In this document: positions 941 through 45,551 of the stretch, in pieces
Layout: the number at the start of each line of letters is the position of its first letter
Position numbering within the stretch: the stretch's first letter is position 1
Assembly: GCA_015523565.1 (NCBI GenBank)
Contig: WAKA01000131.1
Coordinates: 1-59,604 of the forward strand
Source of the DNA: Candidatus Heimdallarchaeota archaeon
Lineage (GTDB): Archaea > Asgardarchaeota > Heimdallarchaeia > Heimdallarchaeales > Kariarchaeaceae
Length of the DNA stretch: 59,604 bases
Reading direction: 5' to 3'
Translations under genes and position numbers: made by a program
The notes under the pieces: generated by a model
What the model was told of the DNA's origin: nothing
The model's database searches: none
Seen by the model: only the letters and a program-made list of their open reading frames with translations

Positions 941-958
941 TTTTGAAGTTTCCTGATT

Positions 959-2016: not shown

Positions 2017-2292
2017 GATTTGTACGAAAAAAAAATAAAAACTTTTCGATTTTGCCTCAAAAATCAACAAGGATTAGCATAAAGGAATAAATAAACCATT
2101 ATGATGAGGATTGCCCTTACTATAAATTTTCAGATTTATAGGACAAAAAGAAAACAATATGTTAATTTTATGGATAACGTAAAATAAGAAAAATACATCA
2201 TCTTCTCAAGTCATGAAATTTTGCAATAATGGATTCATCTTCTTGTCCTTTCGTCAAAAAAGGTTTATCAAAGGTAAGTTTTCAGGGTAATC

Positions 2293-3579: not shown

Positions 3580-3644
3580 GATTAAATTCATATTCCACAG
3601 GGAGTCCCATCATGAAGTTTTTGGAATAACAGAATGAATTTGGT

Positions 3645-4436: not shown

Positions 4437-4699
4437 AGATCAAAGAGTTATCAATGGAATCAGAGATTTTGCCCATAAATGCTGGAAACACATCAACTTG
4501 AGCCTTGATATCACCAAGTTCACACATTTTATATTATTAAGTTAAATTAATTATTGTTTTCTTTTTTATCCATAATTATGAAAATTTGAATAGAAACAAT
4601 CATTTAGGGAAAATAGAGGATCTGTTTCTTTTTATCTTATTTTCGCACAATTTTAAGACACAACCGTAATTTTTTAATATGTTTTTTTTCTCACAAATT

Positions 4700-4774
4700 A
4701 TGCTTTCTATAAAGCTATCAAGAGTGATTTTCATAATCATACTTCAAAAACAATTTATGTTATCCGTTCTTTGA
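4700..4774 (+). pseudogene. Remnant of gene A (third copy, inverted)
   Basis: cacaaattATGCTTTCTATAAAGCTATCAAGAGTGATTTTCATAATCATACTT aligns with the start of gene A (reverse complement of about 160-210); stops after 24 codons. Confidence 0.7.
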
Positions 4775-4842
4775 TAAGGGTTCCTTAACATGGAAAGGAC
4801 ATGACAACCATGCTTGGTAGCTTTATTTAGAAGGTGTCAAAC

Positions 4843-5220
4843 ATGACCAAAAAGACATTATCAATTTTCATTCTTGGTTTGTTGGCAATAACCTCTGTGT
4901 CTGTGGCTCGAAACCTTGGTTCATCAAAGGAAGTTTGATCTATGAGAGGGTACAAGGATTCAGGGATTTGTCTATTATGCAAATGAGACTGTTCGGAACA
5001 TGACCTACAATGACTTGGCATTAGAAGGCATTGAGCTGTCTTTAAAAACAAGACGAACATTGATTGGGATCAGTTCACGTTGGTTCTCTTTTATAATGAA
5101 GAAATAATTCCTGCCCCCACACCAGATCCAATGTCCTCGCCAGTTCAGATTTCAGTCACAATTATTATACTTGGAATAAGTCCCATGATATTCTTTTGAA
5201 TTCGTAAAAAACAAAGTTAG
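4843..5220 (+). pseudogene. Frameshifted and deleted remnant of gene B (inverted copy of 959-1603)
   Basis: Fragments MTKKTLSIFILGLL, IQGFVYYANETVRNMTY, FKNKTNIDWDQFTLVLFYNEEIIPAPTP and ISVTIIILGI match gene B, separated by stops and frameshifts. Confidence 0.85.
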
Positions 5221-24700: not shown

Positions 24701-24706
24701 TGTCAA

Positions 24707-26596
24707 ATGGTGAAAGACAATAAAATCAGAGTTGGAAAAACCACAGGAGTAATTGAATGGGGCATTTCAGAAGATAGGGGATATTGTATCATTGAGGAAA
24801 ACAACAACATAATTTACGTGGCAAAAGAACAAGATACAATTGTTCATCATTGTTCAAAGACAATAAACACATGTAAGCATATTGATGAGCTCAGCCATTT
24901 TTATAGGCAACAGGGCATTCCGTTTATTGCAAGGAAAAGGAGTTTTGAAAGTGCCAGAAAAGCATCAATAAAAATTTTGTCACAATTATTGCAGGAGGGG
25001 AAGATAAGTGCAGAATCACCAATACAATTGCTCCGTGTCTTTCAATTGATGCCAGAGAGACAATTCAGAATGCTTTGGAGACAGATTTCATTGAAATGGG
25101 TAAATCAATCGCCACTCAATAGAATGTTTGAACTAACAGGGGTAACCATAAGTGCAGTTCGACAGATTTCTGCAATGAAGGGAAAGGAAGGACTAGCAAG
25201 CAGATCCATTAGAATCGTGGAAGAGCAACTTTTTAACAAACATCTTGTTTCAGAAATTGATGCAGAAAATTGGAAAACAATCCTTAAGGAAGTCTATAAT
25301 ACATATCAATCAGCAAAGGAACAGGTAATAAAAGAAATTAAGAGAAGAGTAGATGGATTTTGGAAAGACAGGAATGAAGAAATTGTTAAAACCATGTTCA
25401 TGATGCATTGCATTGATACTTGGATTAAAGAAATAGAGGAATGGACAGGGATAAATCCCACCATGAACATAAAACATGAAATCACGCCATATCTAGACAA
25501 ATTCAAGAATTCAAATTCAAAAATTGCAAGGAACAAGATAGGTTTTGCTTTAGCTCTTGCCAATGAAACCCACCCACCAATGGATTTGAAGAAACTGAGA
25601 TTGAGAAAGTTGGAACTTAAGAAATATATGAGTGAAACATTTGGGATCAGCAATGAGAAAAGACGGAAGAATGCAATTACATTGGACGATTTCTTTATCT
25701 ATCTGTTGGAAAAATTGAAAGCAAGACCCTCATATGATTTCCCCATTCGCAGATATTATGACAATGTATATCTTCCAGAATCCATTCTTATGGACTATCC
25801 AATTTTAAGATTCATATTGGAAAGAATCAAACAAGAGAATTATTTGACATATGATGATGTGACAAACCATTTGAAATTGTTCAAATGGCTTGGAGGAGAA
25901 AAAATCCAATCAAATTATAAAGACAGACTTTTAGGGACAAGCAATCCCATAATACCAGCCAATGCGTTCATTGTCCAATGGGATATCCGTTCAAATTATG
26001 GAGAAGGGGACATAATGCATTTCCAATATGATGGCAGGACATATGAGCTTGATTTCAGTGAAGCAATAAAAATGGGAATAGCACCCTTTTCTTACACAGT
26101 CTGTACCATTGAAAGAGAAGGAAAGATCAATATATTTGAAATCATCAATGCAGAGACGGTTTTAAAATCAATCGAGAGCCAACCAATTAAGATAGTAAGT
26201 TCATTACTCCCTTGGTATCTATTGACAGACAAAGAGACAATAGAATTGACACAATTGAACAAGGGAATCAGGGAATGCAAAGAAAAATGGTTTATCCAAG
26301 GTGCACAAATATTGGAGAAGAAACTGCAGGAATTTCTGGAAAATGAGTGGTGGTATCATGATTCAAGAAAATATGAAGAAATAAAGGAGAGATTGATCAA
26401 CGGGGAGTTCAAATATGGAAAAGAAGAACTATGGGATTTAATCCCGAAACGAATACAAGAACTAATGGAAATGGACATTCCTGAAAGTAAGGTCAGAGAC
26501 ATGCTGTTGATTGAGGCAATTAAGATATCACCAGACATATATACAGCTCTTGAATACATCATTAAGAAATTTGGGAGAAATGACAGCCGTAATTAA
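24707..26596 (+). CDS. Hypothetical protein with N-terminal SWIM-like zinc finger
   Basis: HHCSKTINTCKHI after beta-strand segment; closely follows the vWA gene. Confidence 0.6.
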   Translation: MVKDNKIRVGKTTGVIEWGISEDRGYCIIEENNNIIYVAKEQDTIVHHCSKTINTCKHIDELSHFYRQQGIPFIARKRSFESARKASIKILSQLLQEGKISAESPIQLLRVFQLMPERQFRMLWRQISLKWVNQSPLNRMFELTGVTISAVRQISAMKGKEGLASRSIRIVEEQLFNKHLVSEIDAENWKTILKEVYNTYQSAKEQVIKEIKRRVDGFWKDRNEEIVKTMFMMHCIDTWIKEIEEWTGINPTMNIKHEITPYLDKFKNSNSKIARNKIGFALALANETHPPMDLKKLRLRKLELKKYMSETFGISNEKRRKNAITLDDFFIYLLEKLKARPSYDFPIRRYYDNVYLPESILMDYPILRFILERIKQENYLTYDDVTNHLKLFKWLGGEKIQSNYKDRLLGTSNPIIPANAFIVQWDIRSNYGEGDIMHFQYDGRTYELDFSEAIKMGIAPFSYTVCTIEREGKINIFEIINAETVLKSIESQPIKIVSSLLPWYLLTDKETIELTQLNKGIRECKEKWFIQGAQILEKKLQEFLENEWWYHDSRKYEEIKERLINGEFKYGKEELWDLIPKRIQELMEMDIPESKVRDMLLIEAIKISPDIYTALEYIIKKFGRNDSRN

Positions 26597-26630
26597 AGAG
26601 GATTATAAAGTTTGAAAATTTATTTGGATT

Positions 26631-27893
26631 GTGCCCCATATTTCAGAGAAAATGATCATAGCCTCAATTTTGGTGGGAATCGTTGTCATTGCACCCATTT
26701 CCATGTGGGTATATGTGGACAATCAAGCAGAAAAAGCAAAACAAGACCTAGAGAATGCACAATTTATGATATATGATGTGGACATCCTGAACATAAGCAA
26801 TGGGCAAATATTTTTTAATATTACAGGGGAAGTTAAAAATTTGAATACAACACGTTCAGAAGTGTTTACGATAGAGAGTTTTCAATTGATTTTGGATCCA
26901 AATGCATCCAGACCAGTTGTTATTCCAGTTGACACTAATGCGATATCAACCGTAATGGACAATATGTCATTTTCATTTGTTTCGTCAATTGAAATTAAAG
27001 ATTTGGAAAATTCCGACAGCCCTTTTTTGGGGAATTTAATCTCTTCAGGAATGTTTGACATCCCATTTCTTGGAAGAATTTCTGCCAAAGCAAATGGAAT
27101 CAGGAAAAGCATTGAATTTGACAATGTCCTACATTTTTACTTATCAAGGGGCATTGTAATGAATGTAACAGAAATCTCAAATCCAATCAGTTCCAAATCA
27201 GTTGACACCAATGTTACAATCATGATTTCAAATCAGTTTTCTGCTGATTTTGACATTACAGGAATTGTAAAAGTAAATATGGGGGAATTAGTATTGGGAA
27301 ATATAGATTTAACCAATCCATTGACTTTAGAGTCGGGATCCAAAGAATATAAGCTTCCATTAAAGTTGGAAAGATCATACAAAGAGAGTCTTCAAAGTCT
27401 GATTACAAGTGAAAATTTCACTTTTGTAGTAGAAGGGGAGATAACTGTAGTCAATGAGAATGCGGAAATCCCTGCGGAAATTCAATTGAAAGTTGAAACG
27501 GGTGAGGGGTTAACACCTTTGGGGTGGCAAGTTGACAATTTTGTTATCAATGATTATGATCCATTTAGTGGAAACGGGACAGTTGTCTTTAATATAACAA
27601 TATTCAACAACCTACCAATCACAATCCCCATCAATTTCCTTGAAATGGACCTGGCAACACTTACCAACATAAATTTTGCAACTGTCTTTTGGGACGGGAA
27701 GGCAACATACATTCCAAAATATTCCTATGAAAAGCTTTTCAATGTCACAGGATTTTTGAAGGGCGTGAATGCAATCCTTTTGGGCAAGATTACTCAAGAC
27801 AAGGCAATCAAGGTTCCAAAAGCAATAATAAGGATATTTACACAACTTGACGAGTTTGATCTGGTTTTTTCCATAGACCATATCGATCTATAA
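26631..27893 (+). CDS. N-terminally anchored extracellular beta-sandwich protein (LEA_2/WHy-like repeats)
   Basis: Single N-terminal TM; three beta-rich modules with I.N-type motifs (EVKNLN, ISNQFS, IFNNLPITI); many N-X-S/T. Confidence 0.55.
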   Translation: MPHISEKMIIASILVGIVVIAPISMWVYVDNQAEKAKQDLENAQFMIYDVDILNISNGQIFFNITGEVKNLNTTRSEVFTIESFQLILDPNASRPVVIPVDTNAISTVMDNMSFSFVSSIEIKDLENSDSPFLGNLISSGMFDIPFLGRISAKANGIRKSIEFDNVLHFYLSRGIVMNVTEISNPISSKSVDTNVTIMISNQFSADFDITGIVKVNMGELVLGNIDLTNPLTLESGSKEYKLPLKLERSYKESLQSLITSENFTFVVEGEITVVNENAEIPAEIQLKVETGEGLTPLGWQVDNFVINDYDPFSGNGTVVFNITIFNNLPITIPINFLEMDLATLTNINFATVFWDGKATYIPKYSYEKLFNVTGFLKGVNAILLGKITQDKAIKVPKAIIRIFTQLDEFDLVFSIDHIDL

Positions 27894-31952: not shown

Positions 31953-34900
31953 CTATTGAACGGGTGTTTTTTTGACGGGGTTATCAACCATATAAAATTC
32001 AGTAGAGATATTAAGAACAGCAGATCCATCAATAGTGACAACTAAACCATGCTGTGCTTGGAATTCAGAAGAGTAGATACCCAATTGATAGCTGTAAGCC
32101 ACGTATGTCCCATCTCCTACACCAAGGAATGTAGCTATTCCACTGGAGTTAGTAATGGCATAGTATCCAGTCCATTGATAGTATCCATTACCAGAAGGCA
32201 GGTAAAGGTAGACATAGGCCGATGTAAGAGGAGTGCCATCATAGTCAATCAATTTGACATAGACAGTTCCACCACCAATGTTTACTTCATGGATATCGCC
32301 AGATTTGGCAGTTATTTGACCACCAATATACGACTGGCCATAGGTAAAGTATGCTTTAGTTACAACTAAGACATATTTGCTTTGGTTGTTGGCATAGACA
32401 GTTGCAACACCAGAGGAATTTGTATAACCATAGCCAGCTTGAATCCCCTGATATGAGAGATACACCCTCATTTGGGGAACGGTATTGTTGGCACCATCTA
32501 GAACCCGTATATATATTGGGACAGGATGGATTTCCACATTTTTGTTGGCAGTCGCATTGAAGAGATTTGAGTATACATAGCCCTTGCCAGGATAGTAGGA
32601 ATAGGCAAGATATGAGGCATTGACAACCGCATTCAGAACAGCAACACCTGAGGCATTTGTTTTTGCCCATCCACCCCAATAGCCCTCTGTAGTCCGCAGA
32701 TATACCCATTGGTCTGCACCTACCTTGGATGTGGAATCAATTTGATATACACTTACAGAGACGGTTGTCGTTGCTAATGAATACTCGAACAATGTATTCC
32801 CAGTCACATTGAATGTTGATGATTTCTGCGATACAACAGGATACTTGTATATTCTTAGATAATATGAGTCATTTATCACGAATGAAAACACGGCGTATCC
32901 AGTCGTATTAGTTTTAGCCCAGCCAGAATACGTACCTAGTTCAGAGGAATATAAGTACACATAGGCATTTTGCAATGCAGAACCGTTGTTCAGTATTCGA
33001 ACTGTAAGTTGATGACCAATGACAACAATGGTAGTGACAAGTCCATCAGATGAATTTAAGGGTGAGGACAATATTTCCCTTCCTGACAGATATAACCGAG
33101 CCACAAGTTCAGTATTGTTTGGTGCAAGAACCGTGGCAATCCCTGATGAATTGAAAACACCATATCCTATATAGCTGTTATTGGAATTGAAGTAGATATA
33201 TGTATAAGTCCAAGAATTAGGTGGCTGGAACCCATTGCCGTTACTATCCACTAGTTTCACATATATTGTCACCAAATCAAACAGGACAGTGTTGACCGTA
33301 TTTTCCACTAATGTTATGGGCTTTGAATACAAGGAACCCATTCGGATCTTGTAAGTGGATCCATTACTGATGGTAACTGTGGCATATCCTGTTGAATTGG
33401 TTTTGCCCCATCCTGCGTATGAATTCTGGAGGGTATACAGATAGAAATAGGAATTCTTCAATGGTTGTCCAGAAGTTGTCATAAGACGTATTGTGGTGCT
33501 TGCAGGCTGAACCACAACTGTTCCACCGTTTGTTATGGTGAAATTGCTCGAGTAAAAGTACAGATATGGGCTATAAGAATAGACATAGACGCGATACATT
33601 CCAGATTCAGGAGCATTGAAGTTGGCTTTCCCATTAGAATCAGTTGTGGAATAACCAAGATAGACCCACCCAGAGGTGGCTGCATAAAGGTAAACCCTTG
33701 CATTCGCCAAATTGGTTCCATCTGAATTCTTTACATGAATGGTGAATGGAACCACATTGACAACCAACAAGACAGATGTGGTTATTGAAGTGTTGAATAC
33801 AGCAGTCTGTATTATGGTGCCATAATCAATGCCAATAGTGTAATTGGTGTTGGGCAACAATGCAAATGTGGCATTGCCATTTGCATTCAAATATTGTGTC
33901 ACATAGATTTCACCATTCAGATATGCATTCACCCTAGTGTATTTTATTGGATTGCCAGAATTATCTTGGACATGCACTTCGACCAATGTACCGCCAAGTT
34001 TAAACTGCACAACCATACCGTTTGTGGCGTTAAATGAGAGACTTCTTGCTTGGGTATATTTTCCACTGATGTAGAAGTACGTCCTCAGGTAGACACTGGT
34101 ATTTTCAGAAACCGTGGTTATAAACGTTGCAATTCCAGAAGTATTGGTTCTGGCAAATCCAAGATATTTGTTGTCTTTTGATGACATCAGATATACATAT
34201 TGATTTTGTCGTGGAGATCCATTCGGATTGGTCACATTCGCATAAATGACCAAACCTTGGATTGTGATGTTGTAAACCAGGTCTGAATTGACACTGAATT
34301 TGCTTGTGGAATGATATGAAGAACCAGCATAGTATTTAAGGTAATAAGATCCATTCTTCAGACCATAAAAGTCCGCAAATCCCGTATTGTTTGTTCTTTG
34401 GGAGCTTAAAGCCCTTCCAAACTCATCATACAATGAAACATATATAGAGGAAACGGGATCACCAGAAGAAGTGGTAACATTTACGGACAGATGATTTCCA
34501 TCCAAGTAAAATTCATAGACAGAACCTGGAACCACTTTGAATATACCAGAATTGTAGGTTTTTCCTTTTGTCACTTGTATTTTAAATTCGCTTGCAGGAA
34601 TTGAAAACGCAGCGTATCCTGTTGCATTGGTGTATTTATATCCGACGTATGTTGCAGAGGATCCAATTACGGAATATGCACGGACAAATGCAGAAGAAAT
34701 GCCGACGTTATTCTGTTGCAGGACTTTGACATAAACAACACCAGGGTTGGTATTGATGTAAACATCCTTTGTTTGAGATACGTCAACAAAAGAGCTTGAA
34801 GCAGGAACGGTGGAACCATGATAGGCGTTAAATTTATATTCACCATTCAAAAGGTAAAAAGTGGCTGAGCCATTAATATTTGTAGTTTTTGAGATGCCTG

Positions 34901-35816
34901 TGACTTGTTCCACAACCTTGTTGTTTACAATGACTTTTTTGTATGAATAAATGGTTGCTCCATCAACAGGAACATCATTTTCGGAATAGTGAACGTTTAC
35001 AGCCTGGATTTGGCTTTTTATGGGAACCTTCCTGAATAGCTTAAAGTTGTCCAATCTTGCAGGATGAGTAAACACAGCAGTTTTCTTGACATCTGTTGGC
35101 GAAATGTAGATTTTCAGGTAGTATTTCCCAGCCCTTAACCTAAAAGAAGCCTTGCCATTATCATCTGTTACTTTTTCGACAGATGCAGGCAAGTCTTTTC
35201 TGGCATCAAAGGGGACAACCTTAATACCCTTGAGTTTGCGACCACCAGCTTGAAGCAGTTCGACTGCGTCTGGTTCATTTCTGGATGCGGCCATTTCCAA
35301 TTGCATTCTTAGTGTGGCAGATATTACAGTGCTATCCTGTAATTGAAATGTTAGAGGGTCAGTAGGGTTGATTTCAGTCACAGAACCAGTAAGTTTTGCG
35401 TTTCCACCAGCCATAGAGAATATTAATGTATATGAATCCCCAATTGAAAATTGTTCGCTGGATTTTCCAGCGGTTATTACCAATTTCCCTGGTTCAGAGG
35501 CACTGATAGAATCTGATGTTAGTGGCAGAGACCACCAAGAATCTCCTACGAAGACTCCATTTGAAAAAATGACCGACACATTGGCAATTGGAACTGAATT
35601 CACAGTCTTGGTTGTTAAGTCAAAGACTGCCAAATCAGCCTTGCCATCACCGTCAAAATCATAAAATTTGTCTTCGCTAAGTGAGACATCATATATTGAG
35701 GATCCCTTATTAATATAATAATTCACCAATAATGCCACGGATGCTGCGGCGGCAACAACAATAGCGATCAAAAGCATTGTAGCGACAATTGGAGAGACTG
35801 CTTTTCTACCTTTCAT
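31953..35816 (-). CDS. Giant type IV pilin-like protein with about 13 tandem carboxypeptidase-regulatory/transthyretin-like beta-sandwich repeats
   Basis: Class III signal MKGRKA|VSPIVATMLLIAIVVAAA; DFDGDGKAD loop; repeats of V.V.D..G.P....V.LY...TN..G.A.F; no C-terminal TM. Confidence 0.85.
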   Translation of the reverse strand: MKGRKAVSPIVATMLLIAIVVAAAASVALLVNYYINKGSSIYDVSLSEDKFYDFDGDGKADLAVFDLTTKTVNSVPIANVSVIFSNGVFVGDSWWSLPLTSDSISASEPGKLVITAGKSSEQFSIGDSYTLIFSMAGGNAKLTGSVTEINPTDPLTFQLQDSTVISATLRMQLEMAASRNEPDAVELLQAGGRKLKGIKVVPFDARKDLPASVEKVTDDNGKASFRLRAGKYYLKIYISPTDVKKTAVFTHPARLDNFKLFRKVPIKSQIQAVNVHYSENDVPVDGATIYSYKKVIVNNKVVEQVTGISKTTNINGSATFYLLNGEYKFNAYHGSTVPASSSFVDVSQTKDVYINTNPGVVYVKVLQQNNVGISSAFVRAYSVIGSSATYVGYKYTNATGYAAFSIPASEFKIQVTKGKTYNSGIFKVVPGSVYEFYLDGNHLSVNVTTSSGDPVSSIYVSLYDEFGRALSSQRTNNTGFADFYGLKNGSYYLKYYAGSSYHSTSKFSVNSDLVYNITIQGLVIYANVTNPNGSPRQNQYVYLMSSKDNKYLGFARTNTSGIATFITTVSENTSVYLRTYFYISGKYTQARSLSFNATNGMVVQFKLGGTLVEVHVQDNSGNPIKYTRVNAYLNGEIYVTQYLNANGNATFALLPNTNYTIGIDYGTIIQTAVFNTSITTSVLLVVNVVPFTIHVKNSDGTNLANARVYLYAATSGWVYLGYSTTDSNGKANFNAPESGMYRVYVYSYSPYLYFYSSNFTITNGGTVVVQPASTTIRLMTTSGQPLKNSYFYLYTLQNSYAGWGKTNSTGYATVTISNGSTYKIRMGSLYSKPITLVENTVNTVLFDLVTIYVKLVDSNGNGFQPPNSWTYTYIYFNSNNSYIGYGVFNSSGIATVLAPNNTELVARLYLSGREILSSPLNSSDGLVTTIVVIGHQLTVRILNNGSALQNAYVYLYSSELGTYSGWAKTNTTGYAVFSFVINDSYYLRIYKYPVVSQKSSTFNVTGNTLFEYSLATTTVSVSVYQIDSTSKVGADQWVYLRTTEGYWGGWAKTNASGVAVLNAVVNASYLAYSYYPGKGYVYSNLFNATANKNVEIHPVPIYIRVLDGANNTVPQMRVYLSYQGIQAGYGYTNSSGVATVYANNQSKYVLVVTKAYFTYGQSYIGGQITAKSGDIHEVNIGGGTVYVKLIDYDGTPLTSAYVYLYLPSGNGYYQWTGYYAITNSSGIATFLGVGDGTYVAYSYQLGIYSSEFQAQHGLVVTIDGSAVLNISTEFYMVDNPVKKTPVQ
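32020..35250 (-). repeat. Protein-level tandem repeat array, about 13 units of about 80-85 aa
   Basis: Recurrent cores TDDNGKASF, TNINGSATF, TNATGYAAF, TNNTGFADF, TNTSGIATF, LNANGNATF, TDSNGKANF, TNSTGYATV, FNSSGIATV, TNTTGYAVF, TNASGVAVL, TNSSGVATV, TNSSGIATF. Confidence 0.88.
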
Positions 35817-35826
35817 GGTTCTTCAC

Positions 35827-37701
35827 CTAACCTTTCTTTTTAATTATGACGAATATTACACCGAATATGCCAATTATGGTGCCGATTATTCCCACCAATA
35901 ATATTGGAGAATTTCCATCATTAAAGTTGCCATTTAAAATCTCATTTATTCCACCTTGTGAGGAGGAGGATAAGAATGCCCCCGTAGATTGGGATTGGTT
36001 TTGTGGTACTATTTTTGTCGTAAATGACCATTCCATCAACAAATTCAGGTCAGAAATGGAAATGGAACCTGAAAAATTAAGATCCAAAGGTTCATCAAGT
36101 AAATCAAATCCTTTTGCAATCCAGACAAATGTAATCATTCCTGAGGAATTGGTCAACCCTACAGCAGTAGTGTCGTTGGATGATTCAAACACACCCAATA
36201 TTGTTGAAATTGATACTAAAGCACCTGAGTATGGTTGAGATGTTTCATTGTAGACCATAATTGTTATCTTCAGTTTTTCGTTAGGATGAACCTCGTCGTT
36301 ATCCGCCATGACATCATATGAAAAGCTCAATGGCAACGGCTTGACATGAATGTTTGCAGAATTTGTTGCAATTCCAGTCTCGTTGCCATATGCCTCTACA
36401 AGAATACTGACAGTTGTTCCGATAATTGAAAGAGGAATTAAATCAGCAACCCAGATTGCGGATGCCCTACCATTCCCATCTGACTTCAGCAACAATTTTG
36501 TTTTCCCGTTTTCCAAGAAATAGCCTTCATTACTTGTCAACGATATTGTTGCCCCAATTACCTTGGTTGTTTTGTGGGTAATCTCCAAGTTGATGAGAAC
36601 AGTTTGATTGACTTCGACATCAGTCTCGTTGATACTCAAATTAATTGTATAAATGATGGGGGAAACCTGTAAGGTTTTATTGATTGTGATTTGAGCACCT
36701 GCTTTGGTTATTATTGCTTGGAAATTGACATTAATTTCACTGGCAACGGATGGGGCAGTCCACAAAAATGTTGCAACTCCAGTTGAGTTCGTTGTTGACT
36801 GTTCGCTGAAGGATCCTAAGGAATTTTGGAATAATATAACCTCTGCATTTGATACGGTACCATCGGTTCCATTAGCTAAAACAAAAATTTGTACGGATTC
36901 ATTGGTTTCAATAGATGATTTTGAAAACAAAATGAATGATCCATTGAGATCATATTGCTTAAGTTGAATTTGAATGGTTGAGATGTAATTAAGTCCTGAG
37001 CGAATTGTTGCAGTGGCTTGAAGGGTGACGTTAATGTCTTCAGAAATGCTGGGAGGAGCAGACCATAAAGTGGATGCCTTTCCCAATGAATCAGTCAAAA
37101 CATTAGTTGAAGAAAAGTTGCCGATACCATCTGAGGAGTTGAAAAAGACTTGAATGCCACTGAGATCACCTCCATTGATCGAAAATGAGGAAAAGGTTAA
37201 TGAAACCGTTTCTCCAGGGTGGACAACAGAAGTGTTACCATCCAAAGACGTTGATGTCAATTCAACAGCAGAAGGGGTGATTGTAATAAATTGACTTTGC
37301 AATGAATATGTATCGCCACCATAGGTCACATTCACCTTGATTTCCACGTTTGGTATTTCGATGTTCGATTCAGGAACATACCATAGCAGGGAAATATAAC
37401 CAGACGTATTCGATGGGCCAAATACGGAAGGAACATTTGCAGATTCATTTCTAATGAGGTCTCCAACAATTCCCGAATCGCCAAAAGGGGAAATGATTTG
37501 GATAGAAGCATCAGCACCTGATACTGAACCACTTGAATTTGCGGTATAGATATTTATTTGTGTTACACTTCCATCCAAAACAAAACCAGTTCCATTCCCA
37601 ACAGAAAAGGTTGAGGAATCCAAGATAATGGCGGTGGGAGGAAGAATGATAAAACTGCTTAGAAGTAGAGAAAGAAGAAGTAATGATTGTTTTTGAAGCA
37701 T
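35827..37701 (-). CDS. Membrane-anchored surface protein with about 5 invasin/intimin-type (Big-1-like) Ig domains
   Basis: Signal peptide; repeats TDSLGKASTLWSAP, TNSTGVATFLWTAP, SDGNGRASAIWVA, TNSSGMITFVWIA; C-terminal TM plus KKKG. Confidence 0.8.
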   Translation of the reverse strand: MLQKQSLLLLSLLLSSFIILPPTAIILDSSTFSVGNGTGFVLDGSVTQINIYTANSSGSVSGADASIQIISPFGDSGIVGDLIRNESANVPSVFGPSNTSGYISLLWYVPESNIEIPNVEIKVNVTYGGDTYSLQSQFITITPSAVELTSTSLDGNTSVVHPGETVSLTFSSFSINGGDLSGIQVFFNSSDGIGNFSSTNVLTDSLGKASTLWSAPPSISEDINVTLQATATIRSGLNYISTIQIQLKQYDLNGSFILFSKSSIETNESVQIFVLANGTDGTVSNAEVILFQNSLGSFSEQSTTNSTGVATFLWTAPSVASEINVNFQAIITKAGAQITINKTLQVSPIIYTINLSINETDVEVNQTVLINLEITHKTTKVIGATISLTSNEGYFLENGKTKLLLKSDGNGRASAIWVADLIPLSIIGTTVSILVEAYGNETGIATNSANIHVKPLPLSFSYDVMADNDEVHPNEKLKITIMVYNETSQPYSGALVSISTILGVFESSNDTTAVGLTNSSGMITFVWIAKGFDLLDEPLDLNFSGSISISDLNLLMEWSFTTKIVPQNQSQSTGAFLSSSSQGGINEILNGNFNDGNSPILLVGIIGTIIGIFGVIFVIIKKKG

Positions 37702-37826
37702 CTCGCGTTAAATTAGCTTTGCAACCTATTTAAATAAATTGACATTTAAACAGGATTTTTCTTCTTTTTTTAAAAATCGAAAGAAAAGCAAGATTATAGA
37801 ATTCAAACAACAGGATAAAGGGAGAG

Positions 37827-40800
37827 TCAAGCTTCTAAAACAGAACCATACAAATTCTGTATATCCCATGATTGTTTTTTAAGGAAATTCAGAATTTGTG
37901 CTTTGGAATCATCAGGAAGACTATGGAACAATTCCTTGATACGTGAAGAAGAGGAAAGGAAGGATCGAAGTTGAAGTTCAACAGCCAAATTCTCATCAGG
38001 AGAAGAATGCATGTTTTTCATTGAATTGAGGATTTGTTGTGGATTCCTTACCAGCCAATTAGAGAAAGCATGTGTCAAAACAGAGAGGTAGGCGATAGAA
38101 GTGATTTCTACCTTATGAAGAAGGGATTGCAAATAGCCTTCCAATAAGCGATAAAATATAACCATTAAAAATCCATGAGGAAGGTTTTCAGTTGTGACAA
38201 GATCGTCAATAACAGAAGTCAGAAATTTTGATCCCTGAAACCCATTTTTCATGATATGATCCAACATTGTCTTGTCAAAAAATATTTTTTGAATAACAAG
38301 ATATTTTACATAATTGCTAATGCATGAAAGTTCTGATAAATTTGGGATGGGGTCTGGAAATCTAAGGAATTGGAGAAGTTGTGCAAGGCAATCAAGCTTA
38401 GTCTTGACCTGAGAGGAAAGTGAAGAGGGAAACTCAACATTTTCTTTCAACATTAGAGAGAGAAATGCAAAGTCAGAAACCAATTCACCATAATAATCAC
38501 CAAGTTTATCCCATTCCATGAACAATGTGGGGGTAACCTCATTCCAAAGAAAAAGAAAAATTTGTAAGAATACCTTTTTTGTTCTTTTGTTAAACCAAAA
38601 TGCAAGAAACTCATTGATTACCTCAATCCTATCTCGAATGATAGAAGATACACAGGCTATAGTGATGACTTTATTGAATTGGGAAAAGTCATCGATACGG
38701 TCTAAAATCACCTCTAGGAATTTTTGGAGATACCATTGCTCCTTTGGAAAGAAAGACATTACAAGAAATGGAACAGCTTTTGGGTATAAGGAATAATTGA
38801 CCTTAGCAATTGATAGAAATTGGAAAAACTCATCAATCCTTCCTTCAATTGGTAGATTCTCAACATGTGTACTAAACAGTTCTTTGATAAGGCGTTCTTG
38901 ACCAATAAGTTGTTTTGGATATTTCCATCCTTTAACTAGATATTCAATCAAGAATTGTTTCAGATGTTTATCTCGATATCTTAAGGTAAAAATAATTGAA
39001 GTTGGCAATTGCAAAACAAATGCATATCCCGCAATTTTTATGGCATAGAAATCTGTGAGATTGATGTCGGGTAAGACATTCTGGATAGATATGAAAGACA
39101 AAGCTTCATCTTCATTGAATTGTGCAAGATGGTCAAGAAAAGCTTGAAGGAGTGACTGTAATGAGTTAATAGTGATAGGATCATGATCAAACAATAGCAG
39201 ATATAATGAGATAATGGGAAAATCATCAACAAACCTAAGTTTTCCGTTAATTTGGGGGAGACAATATTCCATCAATGTTTTTAGGGAGGGGGAACGGGAT
39301 TCTACAAAATGCAATAATTCCTCAATAAGGTCTGGTTCAATCAAGAATTCACCTTTCAATAATAGGTCCATATATTGGTAGAAGGCATTATCAGACCAAT
39401 TGGCATTAAGATAATGCATAATCAGACGATTAACGAATTTGTGGTTAAGTTCATCGCGAGGTATTTTTGATGCAAATGAAGCAAACGAAACCGTATTGTC
39501 AGATGAATAAAGTAGTTCATTGAACTTTTCACCAAAAGAAATGATAAAGTCAATCAAGGTCATCATCTTATGGTTTGAGGAATAATGCCAAGTTAATGCA
39601 TTTAGCACCAAATCAGGGAAGTATTGGTCAGGAAGATATACAAAACATTCGACGAGCGATCCAGCAAGATTTCGAAGGGTTCTTGAAGATTGGGTAAGTT
39701 CCAGCAAGTTGATGGAAAAGGTTTCCAAAAGTTGGGTTTTTTCATGAATTGGATTCTGAATTGTTTGCAAAAGAGACAATGTTTCCATCAAAACATCTTC
39801 CAAGTAAGGGAAGGTAGCTTCAATCAATTGTTCCGATACCGTTGTACCAGAAATAAGCAAAAGCGAAGTAAAATAAGCACAATGTTCCAAATTGATTCTC
39901 TGCATTTTGGATCTGTTTCCAAGCAGTTGAAGAAGAAGAGAATGAAGTTCCTCCAATTCCGCACGATCATATGGATTGAAATATACAAGTTGGGATTCCC
40001 ATGATTTGAATGTTTTTTTCACATTGGACATCTTATTGATTACATCCATGTCAATTGGGGAAAACGAATAAGTTTTTACTTCACGAATGATTTTCCTTAA
40101 TGTCTCGTCAGAAGTTATACGAACATGATTGTTACACAATTCAGTATGCAACAATATGAATTTGAATTTACTTCGGCATTTTTCAATTAGCGTGGATAGA
40201 CCATTGGTGGGGATGGGTATCCAATCTCGAAATGACCATTCAAAGGAGGGGAAAGACAAATCTGTATAGTGTTTTTCATAAAGTCTCATTATTTCCCCAA
40301 AAAACCTTGATCCTTCAGAAGTTTCCAGTATTGAAATTATATAGGGTGTAAAATCAATGATTTCCTTCAATTTAAGTGGGTTTTCAAATAGGAGATTGGG
40401 AGTTTCAATAATTTGGAACCCTAAAAACATCAGGGAATTCATGGAAAGTGTTTTGTTAGAAATAGTTTCCATGTCTAGAAGCTTTGTTTGAAAATCATCG
40501 ATTAATTGACCTAAAACATAGTCTTGGTCAAGTTTTTGGAAGTGGTTTTTTAACCAACAGGAAATGGCAAAATCAGCAAATGAACGTCTTGATATGGGGG
40601 GAAATATGAAATAATCACCATTGGGTTCATTAAATAAAGGAGGGCTTTTGATATTAAAGATGAAATGACTTCTTGTTTTTTTGGCTGACAGCACCTTTTT
40701 GAATAGTTTTGAAATGTTGGGAGGAATTTTATCAGGATTTAGAAATAAAATGTCTGCGTGATCAATTGCGAAAATTACTTCCTTTGGTTTAAAGAGCTTG

Positions 40801-41687
40801 TGCAATGATGAGATGATTGCAGTAAAGGATTTGGCGGAGGCAATCTTGTCAAGGACATCATCCACCATATCGGCGGAATTTCCAATAAGAGCGTCTTGAA
40901 AATCATTTTCGAGACGATTAACCAAATATTCTTGAAAAGAGGAAGAAAGAAATATGGTTGGCAAATCCAAGTATATCACAACCATATCATCCCATAACCT
41001 CTGTACATGTTGTAAAAAGGCGGAGGATCCATCATTATGCTGGGAAATCATTATTTTCAGATCATCATGCTTTTTGATGCAATACTGTTTGAACTGATTA
41101 AACTGATTCTTGCGCAATAGAGGAAGCGTAGGAATAGCAAATTTCTGAAGAAAATAATCTGAAAAATAGTTTCTGTCTAAAAAATATTCAGATGTACAGG
41201 GAGAAAGTTGATTTCCTTGTTCCTTTTCCAAGCATAGTGATACCAACCATCCCTTTATAGTTAGTACAATCCCATCCCATCCAGTTTTCTTTCCTTTTGG
41301 TCGAATCAATGAGATCAGATTTTCATTGGATAGGGATTCAATGACATTAGTGTTGAATAATTGACGAAATTTTTTTTTGTTTCCAAATAGGGCACCCCAC
41401 TGGTCAACCTTTCCTTTTTTATCTGCCTGGTGCATAAGCATTATTTCTTTCCGTGATACTTTTCGGAATGCAGCACTTGGGACAAAAAGGTCAAGAGGGG
41501 TTTCGGGATTTTGGCATATGGATTCATGGATCAGGCGTGCAGAATGAAGCAAAAATTGGGCAGGGATAAGATTTAAACTCTTGCAATACCCTTTGACTTG
41601 ATTAAAGAAGTCTTGTGACAGTAGGGTATCATAGGAAATTTCAGGAAAATTTTCAATTGGCAAGGCACGATCATGTTCATTATGCAT
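37827..41687 (-). CDS. Large hypothetical protein: putative wHTH, degenerate P-loop ATPase (STAND/archaeal-ATPase-like) and Leu/Phe-rich helical region
   Basis: 1286 aa open frame; IMISQHNDGSSAFL at the Walker A position, VIYLDL, VIFAIDHAD at the Walker B position, IFPPIS. Confidence 0.55.
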   Translation of the reverse strand: MHNEHDRALPIENFPEISYDTLLSQDFFNQVKGYCKSLNLIPAQFLLHSARLIHESICQNPETPLDLFVPSAAFRKVSRKEIMLMHQADKKGKVDQWGALFGNKKKFRQLFNTNVIESLSNENLISLIRPKGKKTGWDGIVLTIKGWLVSLCLEKEQGNQLSPCTSEYFLDRNYFSDYFLQKFAIPTLPLLRKNQFNQFKQYCIKKHDDLKIMISQHNDGSSAFLQHVQRLWDDMVVIYLDLPTIFLSSSFQEYLVNRLENDFQDALIGNSADMVDDVLDKIASAKSFTAIISSLHKLFKPKEVIFAIDHADILFLNPDKIPPNISKLFKKVLSAKKTRSHFIFNIKSPPLFNEPNGDYFIFPPISRRSFADFAISCWLKNHFQKLDQDYVLGQLIDDFQTKLLDMETISNKTLSMNSLMFLGFQIIETPNLLFENPLKLKEIIDFTPYIISILETSEGSRFFGEIMRLYEKHYTDLSFPSFEWSFRDWIPIPTNGLSTLIEKCRSKFKFILLHTELCNNHVRITSDETLRKIIREVKTYSFSPIDMDVINKMSNVKKTFKSWESQLVYFNPYDRAELEELHSLLLQLLGNRSKMQRINLEHCAYFTSLLLISGTTVSEQLIEATFPYLEDVLMETLSLLQTIQNPIHEKTQLLETFSINLLELTQSSRTLRNLAGSLVECFVYLPDQYFPDLVLNALTWHYSSNHKMMTLIDFIISFGEKFNELLYSSDNTVSFASFASKIPRDELNHKFVNRLIMHYLNANWSDNAFYQYMDLLLKGEFLIEPDLIEELLHFVESRSPSLKTLMEYCLPQINGKLRFVDDFPIISLYLLLFDHDPITINSLQSLLQAFLDHLAQFNEDEALSFISIQNVLPDINLTDFYAIKIAGYAFVLQLPTSIIFTLRYRDKHLKQFLIEYLVKGWKYPKQLIGQERLIKELFSTHVENLPIEGRIDEFFQFLSIAKVNYSLYPKAVPFLVMSFFPKEQWYLQKFLEVILDRIDDFSQFNKVITIACVSSIIRDRIEVINEFLAFWFNKRTKKVFLQIFLFLWNEVTPTLFMEWDKLGDYYGELVSDFAFLSLMLKENVEFPSSLSSQVKTKLDCLAQLLQFLRFPDPIPNLSELSCISNYVKYLVIQKIFFDKTMLDHIMKNGFQGSKFLTSVIDDLVTTENLPHGFLMVIFYRLLEGYLQSLLHKVEITSIAYLSVLTHAFSNWLVRNPQQILNSMKNMHSSPDENLAVELQLRSFLSSSSRIKELFHSLPDDSKAQILNFLKKQSWDIQNLYGSVLEA

Positions 41688-41706
41688 TTTTTCACCGTGA
41701 AAGCCA

Positions 41707-42258
41707 TTAGTCCATTTGTAAAGAAGCTATGATTTCATCGACTAAATCTTCAAAAACTTTTTCTACATTGAATCCAAGCAAGGCAGAGGTTTCAATATAA
41801 CCAACATCATAACCAGACCAATCCGAAAGGGTTTCTGCGTACTGTTTAGCAACATCTGTTGGCACACACCATTTTTCACCCTCTTTTCTAAGATCAACCT
41901 TGTTTCCAACAAGGATAAAGGGAATCATTTTGCCAACGTTTTTCACAACCTCATTGATCCATTGTGGGATATGTTCATATGTTTGAGGTCTTGTCACATC
42001 AAAAACAACCAATGCACCATTTGCACCATTATAGTATCCCTCCCTGACAATTTCAAAATTTTCTTGACCTGCAAGATCCCATATTTGGAAAATGGTGTTT
42101 CCAACCCTTTTAATTCCAAAATCGGCACCAATAGTCATTAAGTAATTGTATGAAAAGCCTTCTCCAAGGTATCTTCTCCGTAGAGAAGTCTTCCCCACCA
42201 TAGGGTCACCGACTAGAACAAGCTTGAATGTTTGCTTTTGATCGAAATCCATCTTCAA
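41707..42258 (-). CDS. Rab-like small GTPase (Ras superfamily, eukaryotic signature protein)
   Basis: G1 GDPMVGKTS, G2 TIGADF, G3 WDLAGQE, YYNGANGALVVFDVT, G4 NKVD, G5 ETSA; no C-terminal prenylation Cys. Confidence 0.95.
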   Translation of the reverse strand: MKMDFDQKQTFKLVLVGDPMVGKTSLRRRYLGEGFSYNYLMTIGADFGIKRVGNTIFQIWDLAGQENFEIVREGYYNGANGALVVFDVTRPQTYEHIPQWINEVVKNVGKMIPFILVGNKVDLRKEGEKWCVPTDVAKQYAETLSDWSGYDVGYIETSALLGFNVEKVFEDLVDEIIASLQMD

Positions 42259-42375
42259 TTTGTTCTTTTAAGGAAATAATAGTATTTGTACTTATCCGTA
42301 TCTGAGTTAGATAAGTGCACCATTTCTCCAATCTACTGTGAAAAATAAAAAATAGGTGGAGATTTTAACAAACCT

Positions 42376-43131
42376 ATGCTGCCAGGAATAACCACCTCCC
42401 AAATGGAAGAGGTTGACAGGATTATGGTAGAAAACTTGAAGGTTCCAGTTGAACTAATGATGGAGAATGCAGGGGTTGCCATGGCAGAACTTGCATGTGA
42501 AATCTCATCACAAAAAGGGTTTTTGGTGATTGCTGGAAAGGGAAATAATGGAGGAGGAGGTATTGTCGCGGCAAGAAGATTGACCGCATGGGATGAAAAG
42601 GTGACGATATGGCTTCCATTTGGCAAGAAACAACTGAGGGAACTGCCAGCAAGACAATTGGAAAGGACTGAAAAATTTGGGGCAAAAGTAATTGAAGGAG
42701 TTGGAAATTTCCCAATAGAAGATTATGAAGGATGGATGATCATTGATGCATTTATAGGGTATGGCTATACTGGTGTTCCTAGAGGAGTTGTAAAAGATGT
42801 ATTTGAGTTTCTTTCACATCACAAAACGATAATTTCTTTAGATGCACCATCAGGACTAGATACAACAACAGGTACAATGCACAGTGATTTCAGTCCAATG
42901 AAAACGCTTACATTGGCCTTTCCAAAAACGGGATTGTTAAAGGCAAGGGATAAAGTGGGATCTTTGGAGTTGGCAGACATAGGCGTTCCAAAATATGTAT
43001 TTGAAAAGATGATAGACATTGATTGGAATAGTTATGAAAAGGACAATCTTGATTTATTATATTCAAAGTTTAAAGAAAGAAGAAGAGTCAATGTTCAAAT
43101 TATTGATTACAACAATTGGAGCTTACACTAA
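42376..43131 (+). CDS. nnrE: NAD(P)H-hydrate epimerase (YjeF N-terminal)
   Basis: LMMENAG, GKGNNGGGG, IDAFIGYG, LDAPSG, LADIGVP. Confidence 0.92.
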   Translation: MLPGITTSQMEEVDRIMVENLKVPVELMMENAGVAMAELACEISSQKGFLVIAGKGNNGGGGIVAARRLTAWDEKVTIWLPFGKKQLRELPARQLERTEKFGAKVIEGVGNFPIEDYEGWMIIDAFIGYGYTGVPRGVVKDVFEFLSHHKTIISLDAPSGLDTTTGTMHSDFSPMKTLTLAFPKTGLLKARDKVGSLELADIGVPKYVFEKMIDIDWNSYEKDNLDLLYSKFKERRRVNVQIIDYNNWSLH

Positions 43132-45551
43132 TTTTTTTTCCTCTGACGAAGAATTACGACACCAAAAGCAACAGCCATTAACAATGGCAATGCCATGATG
43201 GGACCATTGTCGGCACTTGTGTTTTGAGGGACAGGGGAAGTAGTTTCAGGAGGGGATGCAGAAGTGGTTGCTTGAGGTGTTGTAGTAGACGGAGTGGTGT
43301 CACTTGTCGTGTTTGAACTGGTTGGAGGGGGGGAGGAAGTGGTAGGAGGTGCTGAACTAGTGGTGGTTGAACTTGAGGTGGCAGGAGGTGATGTGCTGGT
43401 GGTGGGAGGAATTGTACTAGATGAAGGGGGAGAGGTGGAGGTGGTGGTTGGCGCAGTTGCAGTTGGTTCATAGTTCAAATTGAAATCAGGATCATGGACA
43501 ATTGAGCCACCATTCCATACGTCATAACTGACAACAATCAAGTTCGATTGATAGAAAAAGTTAACAGTTACGGATTCAACCAAGGAGCCAACTGTGGCAG
43601 TTCCAGCACTATCTGCAGATTCAGATTCTAGTGGACTGACAGATGTTTCTTTAAATGATCCACTAATCTGAATTAAAGTAATGGCATCAAATGCCGCACC
43701 ATAGGTCACATTGTTTAAAGTGTAATTTGCTTTGGGACCAGTTACATCTATTTCAGATGTTGGTTGACCTACACCAGTATTGATTGCCAATCTTCCAAAC
43801 CTTTCGGATCTGCTTGATGGAACTGTCTCATTGGACTCAGTAGCAGTGTATAGTGCCTGAGCGGCAAAGAATTCCGATTTGTAAACCGTTGACAGTGACA
43901 GACCATTCATTGCAGAGGTTAGCGAGGGATCTGTAACTCCATTGTAAATCCAAGTTGGACTAATTTTGACAAAACCAGTATCAGGATTGATGAGAACTAC
44001 ATAATTGTAACCTATGGTTTCTTGATCAATCACAGAGTTTCTGGGATTGGAAACATTGTACCATGTTACAGGAAAGTCATTGTAAGTTATGCCAAAATCA
44101 AATTTAACAGTGCCATTATCTGTGACAATTGGATCATTCCATCTAAAATCAGCAGAGGTGTTTGCATTTACATCACCATAACCAAAACTTTCAACATTAA
44201 AGAATGTCCTGTTGGAGCTTACATTGGTCTCATTCTGAGAAACACCCAAGCCATGGAAAACAACACTGGAATTATAGGTTGATTCCTTGTATCGACCGTT
44301 AACAATTGTGGTTTGGAATGCCTCCCCCAATCCAACATATGCCAATCTATCATCAGAATCAATCGTCAACCCGTCATCAGTCAATGCAAGGTCGAATCTT
44401 CCATTCCCGTTACCATCTTCGTAAGCGGCCATTGTTGTACTTGCTTGGATACCCCAAATAGCCAAACGTGCTTCAACATTGGTTTGGTTCATGTCAGTCA
44501 TGTTTGATGCTTTGGAGACAAAAAGGCTCGTGATACTCTGAAAAGTTGATATTGCGGTGGTTGATACTTGTTGGAAACCTGCTTCAACAAAATATCCTGA
44601 TGAAGAAGCAGTTATGGGCAACATATTACGGGGATACATGTCAAATGGGACAGCAGTCCCGTTTCTGGTTCCATTGGACGCAAATTCAAGATAAGTGAAG
44701 TCAACTGAATAGAATTGATAAGTGACAAAAGAGAAGATGGAATGGGTATAATTCGCCTGTATCCTGTCAAACATGTTGAATTCAAGCCCCAAGTTTTCCC
44801 CATTTGTTATTCTCACTTGGTATGCCTGTGCAGTTACATTGTATACAAACGATTGTGCAACATAATAATTGACAATAGAAATTGCCAGCTTAGTCCTTTC
44901 AACATAAACTTCATAAGACTTGGTTTGGACGTCAAAGATCAAAACTTCAGGGAAAATGACACCTGCCCTCCTTGTTACAGTGCCATTCTGGTATTTATGG
45001 AAATACTCCAAATAAGTAGAGTTGACAGGAAACTGCCCTAAGAATTTGCCAGTAGTAGAGATAACGTATGCAGTTTCTAGGCTGTACGCTTCAGTGACAT
45101 TAAGCTTCATCTGAAGTTTTCCATCTGTGCTGTTCAAAGGATTGAATCGTGAAGGAACAATAGTTCCCAACGTGACATTGACAAAAAAGTCAAGTGTTTG
45201 TTGGTTGTAGTATTCATCATAAGAAAATGTTTCATTCCCTCGTTCTTCTTGCCACGTTGTTTTGTAGAGTGTATTCATATGTGTGGCATTAGTAATTAAG
45301 TCAATATTTCTGACACCAGATCGAGTGTCATTCAACGTTTCAACTATTGACCCATTGAATGATTGTGTAAAATTTCCACTTGTAGAAAAATCAATGGACC
45401 CATAGGAGTAATTAAGGCCATTAATAGATCCACTGTTTATTGTTGCAAGTTTATGTTCTTGCATCGGTGTTTTTTTGAGGGGGGGCTGAAAGCCATTACC
45501 CATCACTAAAATTGCTGTGATAAAAATCAGAAGGAGAATTTTAAATCTCAT
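43128..45551 (-). CDS. Cell-surface glycoprotein with Ser/Thr/Pro-rich stalk and C-terminal anchor (HDPDF motif)
   Basis: Signal peptide, many N-X-S/T sequons, YEDGNGNGRFD loop, IVHDPDFN, long S/T/P tract, TM plus RQRKKN. Confidence 0.82.
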   Translation of the reverse strand: MRFKILLLIFITAILVMGNGFQPPLKKTPMQEHKLATINSGSINGLNYSYGSIDFSTSGNFTQSFNGSIVETLNDTRSGVRNIDLITNATHMNTLYKTTWQEERGNETFSYDEYYNQQTLDFFVNVTLGTIVPSRFNPLNSTDGKLQMKLNVTEAYSLETAYVISTTGKFLGQFPVNSTYLEYFHKYQNGTVTRRAGVIFPEVLIFDVQTKSYEVYVERTKLAISIVNYYVAQSFVYNVTAQAYQVRITNGENLGLEFNMFDRIQANYTHSIFSFVTYQFYSVDFTYLEFASNGTRNGTAVPFDMYPRNMLPITASSSGYFVEAGFQQVSTTAISTFQSITSLFVSKASNMTDMNQTNVEARLAIWGIQASTTMAAYEDGNGNGRFDLALTDDGLTIDSDDRLAYVGLGEAFQTTIVNGRYKESTYNSSVVFHGLGVSQNETNVSSNRTFFNVESFGYGDVNANTSADFRWNDPIVTDNGTVKFDFGITYNDFPVTWYNVSNPRNSVIDQETIGYNYVVLINPDTGFVKISPTWIYNGVTDPSLTSAMNGLSLSTVYKSEFFAAQALYTATESNETVPSSRSERFGRLAINTGVGQPTSEIDVTGPKANYTLNNVTYGAAFDAITLIQISGSFKETSVSPLESESADSAGTATVGSLVESVTVNFFYQSNLIVVSYDVWNGGSIVHDPDFNLNYEPTATAPTTTSTSPPSSSTIPPTTSTSPPATSSSTTTSSAPPTTSSPPPTSSNTTSDTTPSTTTPQATTSASPPETTSPVPQNTSADNGPIMALPLLMAVAFGVVILRQRKKN
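43215..43465 (-). repeat. Low-complexity Thr/Ser/Pro (mucin-like) linker
   Basis: PTTTSTSPPSSSTIPPTTSTSPPATSSSTTTSSAPPTTSSPPPTSS... Confidence 0.85.

Follow-up and report, generated by a model that had tools for sequence, protein, structure and literature searches.

A Rab-like GTPase gene paired with the gene for a predicted STAND-derived helical protein in a heimdallarchaeal contig

Asgard archaea encode dozens of Ras/Rab/Arf-like GTPases, almost none of which has, to our knowledge, a known partner. STAND proteins normally sense ligands with their C-terminal repeats and couple this to nucleotide exchange, oligomerisation and the activation of an effector domain at the N-terminus. MalT and SARP/AfsR-type regulators need ATP binding, and they contact DNA through domains of the LuxR or OmpR families. 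Here, we analyzed a stretch of 59,604 nucleotides (nt) from Candidatus Heimdallarchaeota archaeon (contig WAKA01000131.1, forward strand; this whole stretch is hereafter the window), in which a gene for a Rab-like GTPase (gene 1) is followed on the minus strand by a gene for a protein of 1286 amino acids (aa) with a predicted STAND-type fold (gene 2, the large gene, encoding the large protein). Among described systems, MglA of Myxococcus is reported to act on type IV pili by way of SgmX, a large TPR protein (PMC7668184). In Haloferax, the archaeal small GTPase ArvA shares a conserved operon with the partners it functions with, ArvB and ArvC. Profile searches place ArvA nearest to Arf, and the other two are small Zn-ribbon proteins of DUF2073 and DUF2072 (PMC10927574). 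Tran et al. 2024 reported that the small GTPase genes of Asgard MK-D1 generally lie outside operons with regulators and that their partners are hard to predict (PMC10933270).

The large protein resembles the STAND NTPases (NLR/NACHT, NB-ARC, MalT, Avs, and the ATPase_2 proteins PAB2304 and SSO1545) in its predicted module of nucleotide-binding domain (NBD), helical domain and winged helix, in its long helical C-terminus, and in the expected order of LGR.EEL, Walker A and Walker B, with GxxGxGK and hhhhDE kept in a distant family member. It differs from them in that the window's protein lacks the Walker A lysine, an intact Walker B acidic pair and any Pfam STAND match. Furthermore, its N-terminal domain is a predicted basic winged helix, and it is always paired with a separate Rab-like GTPase; in contrast, MalT and SARP/AfsR-type regulators have no GTPase partner. 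By analogy only, MglA–SgmX is similar, in that a prokaryotic small GTPase is coupled to a helical-repeat protein of ~1000 aa or more; however, MglA belongs to a different GTPase family, and SgmX, as a TPR protein, has no STAND core. A Rab-like GTPase with a long helical partner also recalls Ran–karyopherin, Rab–HOPS/CORVET and Rab–LRRK2 ARM domain pairs, and Foldseek weakly matched the large protein to Kap114 as complexed with RanGTP (E 2.6e-3). Nevertheless, no sequence relation to these eukaryotic pairs was found, and the partner here has a predicted STAND core and winged helix. Because the family is confined to two archaeal genera, the pair is not the ancestor of the eukaryotic GTPase–solenoid systems. 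Unlike the window pair, ArvA–ArvB–ArvC has no STAND or helical-repeat partner (PMC10927574). No description of the pair or of the large-protein family was found in the literature searched. We propose, at somewhat less than an even chance, that the large protein is a STAND-derived signalling scaffold without an ATP cycle of its own, switched in trans by the co-encoded GTPase.

Gene 1 was identified by its sequence as a Rab-like small GTPase of the Ras superfamily (Pfam Ras, E 7.9e-43; 146 bits against a cut-off of 21.6), as the first-pass annotation, made from the letters of the window, had described it. All five motifs that it had called intact were located, namely G1 (GDPMVGKT, aa 17-24), G2 (T42 in MTIGADF), G3 (DLAGQ, 61-65), G4 (NKVD, 119-122) and G5 (ETSAL, 156-160), and all five are invariant in 12 relatives. 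The nearest solved structures were the Thorarchaeota Rab 7EZB (1e-33), followed by Rab11 and Rab1 (~1e-30). The protein ends in EIIASLQMD without Cys, and a C-terminal Cys prenylation motif was present in neither the window GTPase nor any relative compared; thus, it is Rab-like and not a eukaryote-type lipidated Rab. Since the gene calls of its homologues begin at MDFDQ, the true start is probably ATG 42252, giving a protein of 181 aa. We also observed that its P-loop carries Pro and Met (aa 19-20, window 42190-42195) where Ras has G12/G13. Rab has S and G at these positions, the sister clade described below has PR, AR or PA, and the distant orthologue P0016 carries GG.

Next, the linkage of the two genes was compared between the window's own genome (G000), its relatives (G001, G002 and G003) and related loci (numbered with L), the window's genus being denoted g1. 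A Ras-family GTPase adjoins the large gene in seven of the seven lineages with a readable flank; in G002 the contig ends before the GTPase position, and this genome was left out of the count. The GTPase lies on the same strand, 7–66 nt upstream, in G000, G001, G003, L012 and L014/L015. In L011 and G007, it is divergently transcribed over a short intergenic region, and no other neighbour is shared. The first-pass annotation had named neighbourhood conservation as a check, and the linkage thus recurs even where the orientation has changed. A maximum-likelihood tree was built from 56 GTPases, consisting of 21 paralogues of the window genome and the best matches from relatives. The seven linked GTPases formed one clade in it (ultrafast bootstrap (UFBoot) 93 / SH-aLRT 96), and their sister clade was made up of GTPases of the family's other genera, with joint support of 100/98. 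Because the linked GTPases form one clade, the pairing is specific to one orthologous GTPase; it has also outlasted an inversion. There is only a slim chance that the two genes are mere neighbours, kept together by local synteny without direct functional interaction. Most of the sampled loci are close kin, the whole g1 neighbourhood is syntenic, and other GTPase paralogues adjoin unrelated genes, all of which would suit such an explanation; however, the adjacency survived both the inverted orientation and the change of all other neighbours in L011 and G007, a single clade accounts for the linked GTPases, and spacers of 7–19 nt suggest that the GTPase and large genes are co-transcribed.

The two genes evolve at very different rates. 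Between G000 and G001, identity was 92% for the GTPase (72% between the window's GTPase and that of G003), 40–74% for the syntenic neighbours, and 26% for the large protein, such that the slowest and the fastest gene of the region stand side by side. Within the large protein, mean pairwise identity was highest in the N-terminal winged helix (35%) and among the lowest in the NBD (17%), and it was 15–22% over most of the length.

The structure of the large protein was predicted with AlphaFold for aa 1-1200 from a 9-row alignment (pLDDT 72, pTM 0.44), aa 1201-1286 lying outside the model; a single-sequence AF2 run on aa 1-480 was unusable (pLDDT 34.6). The model consists of three parts, an N-terminal winged helix, an NBD–helical–winged-helix module and a long helical region. 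The N-terminal domain has an isoelectric point (pI) of 8.1-9.7 within a protein of pI 5.4-6.9, and KKFRQ.F, R75, R79, H86 and W137 are invariant in it. Residues 184-541 are modelled as an NBD, then a helical domain, then a winged-helix domain, whose best fold matches were NLRs, NOD2, MalT, PAB2304 and Avs3/4. The helical region was predicted with pLDDT of 80-94 over residues 540-720 and mostly 80-91 on to residue 1000, with short dips. It contains the conserved patches FPYLED...HEK.QLLE.FS.NLL (aa ~626-670) and LTHAFSNW (1204-1211). Foldseek gave weak matches of this region to HEAT/ARM-type solenoids (Kap114, Integrator and an SSU-processome chain), and a weak match to the Avs3 sensor in a loose alignment (root-mean-square deviation about 10). 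Some 800 aa of Leu/Phe-rich helical sequence had been described at first pass; the composition of residues 480-1286 (15.4% Leu, 7.8% Phe) agrees with this, and the model shows nothing but helices between 544 and 1200.

These data bear on the role of the protein. The first-pass reading of a dead NTPase joined to a helical scaffold held in so far as the Walker A lysine is missing, the helical region is long and the GTPase linkage is conserved. The effector, tether or coat role attached to that reading was not shown: neither a beta-propeller nor a membrane-binding element was recognised in the large protein, and no transmembrane segment was evident in a hydropathy scan. Because the most conserved part is the predicted basic N-terminal winged helix, a scaffold with a signalling or regulatory role is better indicated than a coat. 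Alternatively, the large protein might regulate the GTPase as an exchange factor for guanine nucleotides (GEF), GTPase-activating protein (GAP), GDP dissociation inhibitor or chaperone instead of being switched by it. The tight and conserved linkage would be expected in this case, and eukaryotic small-GTPase regulators are often large multi-domain proteins; however, Pfam and fold searches revealed no TBC, DENN, longin, roadblock, Sec7 or other GAP/GEF fold, and a surface in contact with the invariant switch regions would be better kept than an identity of 15–22% allows. We therefore regard regulation of the GTPase by the large protein as quite unlikely.

The state of the nucleotide-binding site was then analyzed by aligning the family members. 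The sequences SQHNDGSS and AIDHAD, which had been assigned at first pass to the Walker A and Walker B positions without GK[ST], are indeed found there, the former directly after model strand 211-214 and the latter at the end of model strand 303-309. In the genus g1, the Walker A column reads SQHNDGSS, SNHNDGST, SASNDGSS or DPFDGGSW; outside it, the column reads GDSGAGKNT in P0015, the most distant homologue, and GRVGAGLPS in the G007 homologue. The Walker A pattern GxxxxGK[ST] thus fails in the window's protein, and the lysine is kept only in P0015. The Walker B column has AIDHAD in the window compared with LQLFDEV in P0015 and TLINEV in the G007 member. The window's sequence (VIFAID-H) retains the first Asp, at the end of the strand, and has His in place of the second acidic residue. 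An LGR.EEL motif lies upstream of the P-loop in the P0015 and G007 members. Residues 1-520 of P0015 gave weak Pfam matches at the P-loop to nSTAND3 (0.033, below the cut-off) and AAA_22 (0.037). Because this distant homologue keeps GDSGAGKNT and hhhhDE, the sequence comparison shows that the large-protein family has a P-loop NTPase of STAND type as its ancestor. By its predicted fold, the window's protein resembles a STAND scaffold, but it lacks the Walker A motif and matches no curated profile; we class it as STAND-derived, outside any named family. The loss of the Walker A lysine fits the low conservation of the NBD.

In the proposed mechanism, gene 1 would encode a soluble, catalytically complete Rab-like GTPase, and gene 2 a cytosolic protein with a basic winged helix, a STAND/ORC-type module and ~740 aa of helical sequence. 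The large protein would have stopped running its own ATP cycle, the nucleotide-dependent switching being taken over in trans by the GTPase. In one of its nucleotide states, the GTPase would bind the scaffold, probably through a conserved surface of the latter (the winged helix or the initial helical segment), and this binding would control the scaffold's conformation or assembly. The winged helix is a candidate output, which may bind DNA or a protein. We infer the direct binding, the switching in trans and the nature of the output alike. It is unlikely that an NLR-type switch has handed its nucleotide step to the Rab-like GTPase, such that the GTP/GDP state gates the scaffold and the winged-helix output. 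When aa 30-800 of the large protein were co-folded with the GTPase, GTP and Mg, without controls or the C-terminal 486 residues, the best value was 0.31 against a mark of 0.32, a result that counts neither for nor against binding.

Several observations weigh against the scaffold being a STAND-derived protein switched by its GTPase. The large protein of the window matches no curated STAND profile in Pfam or NCBIfam. Alignment with ATPase_2/AAA_16 proteins of the same genome by hhalign gave an E of 0.016 and a probability of only 2.9%, with all three motifs in register. The NBD part of the model is of only moderate confidence (pLDDT 55-78, from the 9-row alignment with pTM 0.44). One family member retains a near-canonical P-loop, so inactivity may not extend to the whole family. 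In the large protein, no GTPase-binding, GAP or GEF domain of a known type was recognised. Finally, other GTPase paralogues of G000 stand next to unrelated large genes as well, so that a large neighbouring gene is nothing unusual for these GTPases.

Sequence searches placed the family in a narrow range. The large protein had no match in Pfam, NCBIfam, PADLOC or PDB sequences, and searches of the same collections with its relatives, or with the winged-helix domain alone, gave nothing significant. Word-indexed homologue searches, with the single protein or with a profile, returned only the large protein itself, and when 1.84 billion representative proteins were searched exhaustively with HMMER, 6 family members came back, including the query's own entry. 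Among 83 Heimdallarchaeia genomes, the family profile detected members in the window's genus (4/4) and one further genus of the same family only, with one copy per genome. Scans of JGI metagenome contigs and IMG/VR with the conserved winged-helix motif found no further members; alignment A2 was too divergent for pattern scans. Since it is confined to two genera, the family is an innovation of this lineage rather than a component that is general among Asgard archaea or eukaryote-like. Two of the sequences, P0012 (1073 aa) and P0014 (649 aa), at L014:1344-4565 and L015 (GCA_026997455.1, JALTSK010000209.1), are identical where they overlap and part at ...SSLN. Probably a single gene has been divided here, by a frameshift or by an error of assembly.

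Such a narrow range, together with the extreme divergence (26% identity against 40–74% for the neighbours), would also be expected of an antiviral or conflict STAND sensor of the Avs/NLR type, whose helical C-terminus would recognise an invader protein and to which the GTPase would be accessory or downstream. Avs3, Avs4 and SAMD9 were the top Foldseek matches of the large protein, and one relative has an Eco57I-like gene a few genes away. Nevertheless, no recognisable effector domain (nuclease, protease, TIR or Sir2) accompanies the winged helix, and the P-loop lysine needed for Avs/NLR activation is lost. The gene is single-copy and keeps the same syntenic position across the genus, PADLOC gave no match for the four family members and the GTPase searched, and no relative turned up in IMG/VR with the conserved motif as probe. 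Moreover, strong purifying selection acts on the GTPase, which sets it apart from typical defence accessories. We consider a defence sensor improbable on this balance and retain the GTPase-switched scaffold as the favoured proposal.

The pair can be read from the genome, as one GTPase clade always stands beside one orphan family, even across an inversion, and it offers a concrete and testable candidate partner for an Asgard small GTPase. The large protein shows a STAND switch losing its P-loop while the winged helix stays under selection, a case that bears on how NLR-like scaffolds and small GTPases become coupled. If the GTPase did switch an NLR-like scaffold in trans, this would be an archaeal, genetically hard-wired case of an NLR-like protein controlled by a small GTPase, and Heimdallarchaeia would have their first defined GTPase–partner pair. 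Its importance is limited by its range; found in two genera only, the pair says little about eukaryogenesis.

The features of the two-gene unit are listed in Table 1.

Table 1. Coordinates of the GTPase/large-protein unit in the window and of members of an orphan family at related loci
Feature	Position	Strand	Remarks
GTPase open reading frame (ORF)	41707-42258	(-)	183 aa from TTG
Rab-like small GTPase, preferred start ATG 42252	41707..42252	(-)	181 aa; G1-G5 intact, without prenylation Cys
Intergenic spacer, 19 nt	41688..41706	(-)	GGTGA at 41692-41696
Large gene, predicted STAND-fold pseudo-NTPase scaffold	37827..41687	(-)	1286 aa from ATG
Promoter-like A/T-rich element ACGGATAAGTAcAAATAct...	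42273..42301	(-)	~30-45 nt upstream of GTPase ATG
Basic winged-helix-like N-terminal domain, aa ~28-165	41193..41606	(-)	best conserved part
STAND/ORC-type NBD, helical domain, winged helix (model), aa 184-541	40065..41138	(-)	
Degenerate Walker A position SQHNDGSS, aa 215-222	41022..41045	(-)	directly after model strand 211-214
Degenerate Walker B position AIDHAD, aa 307-312	40752..40769	(-)	end of model strand 303-309
C-terminal all-helical region, aa 544-1286	37830..40058	(-)	DSSP: helices only, 544 to 1200
Spacer 3' of large gene, 125 nt	37702..37826	(-)	T-runs cttgcttttctttcgattttt, then TATA-like tttaaata before next gene
~780-aa orphan family members	L048:4850-7198, L049:1767-4142, L051:6200-8527, L052:5455-7437		

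The junction was read directly in the sequence. The GTPase stop codon TAA (41707-41709) is followed by the 19-nt gap, in which GGTGA and four A precede ATG 41687, so that GGTGA lies 4 nt 5' of the start of the large gene, in agreement with the first-pass description of a GTPase ending 19 nt before a large ORF with an upstream GGTGA. The corresponding spacer is 7 nt in G001, L012 and L014. Upstream of the GTPase, the ACGGATAAGTAcAAATAct element is kept in the intergenic regions of G000, G001, L012 and L014, and this A/T-rich element may be a promoter. At the other end, the 125-nt spacer, judged from its sequence, may mark the end of the two-gene unit. A scan for sigma-70 promoters and hairpin terminators, a type ill-suited to archaea, found no more sites than in shuffled sequence. 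We also observed that GTCCGTTTGTAACCAGACGGAT is common to L006:12716-12842, L012:3776-3911 and L014:656-790, upstream of the GTPase and just ahead of the TATA-like element, and that it forms an inverted repeat, TCCGT-N11-ACGGA, in G001, L012 and L014. This repeat was rejected as a conserved operator, as a 13-nt deletion in the window removes its left arm.

The position of the pair is syntenic across the genus, between YjeF_N, NUDIX and deacetylase genes. Directly 3' of the pair, the region 31953-37701 (minus strand) encodes a 624-aa Ig-like membrane protein with faint Big_1 and MG4 matches, and a 1287-aa protein whose N-terminus is that of an archaeal pilin and which carries numerous repeats of the Ig-like or CarboxypepD_reg type. 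These surface-protein genes are kept in G001, G002 and L012 and are absent beside the pair in G003, L011 and G007; because of this absence, they lie outside the conserved core. By analogy with MglA–SgmX, the pair could control these downstream adhesin and pilin-like genes. A same-strand Big_1-like membrane protein and a giant adhesin with a pilin signal do follow in G000, G001, G002 and L012, and the reported MglA–SgmX case provides a precedent (PMC7668184). However, the surface genes are missing beside the pair in the three other lineages, and the 125-nt spacer with T-runs and a TATA-like box intervenes in the window, such that we rate control of the surface genes as very unlikely.

Other GTPase genes of G000 also precede large genes. 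The GTPase at G000:C95:3-647 (L083) is followed after a 61-nt gap by a same-strand gene (708-4940) for a 1411-aa protein with an S8 subtilase domain. Similarly, the GTPase at G000:C232:26667-27272 (L084) is followed after 19 nt by a same-strand gene (23679-26648) for a 990-aa protein of coiled-coil-like (apolipoprotein-type) sequence. The order of a GTPase gene and then a large gene thus recurs in this genome with unrelated partners. In four other genera of the same taxonomic family, the sister-clade GTPase is adjoined, mostly divergently, by an orphan family of ~780 aa (Table 1) with no Pfam or PDB match, which is multi-copy in those genera and also occurs in the window's genus (G000:C203:6798-9143). 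That this orphan is a diverged form of the 1286-aa protein was rejected, as hhalign gave a probability of 0.08% and G000 carries a separate copy.

Within the window, an 807-aa ORF with no Pfam match lies at 43128-45551 (minus strand), flanked by the YjeF_N gene and the NUDIX gene. Identity with its G001 counterpart is 64%, and G003 has a shorter, 556-aa ORF in this place with no detected similarity. The G000 genome (3.57 Mb, 90% complete) contains 21 Ras-family GTPase paralogues at E below 1e-15, and Ras-family matches at E below 1e-30 were found in all 83 genomes of the class searched.

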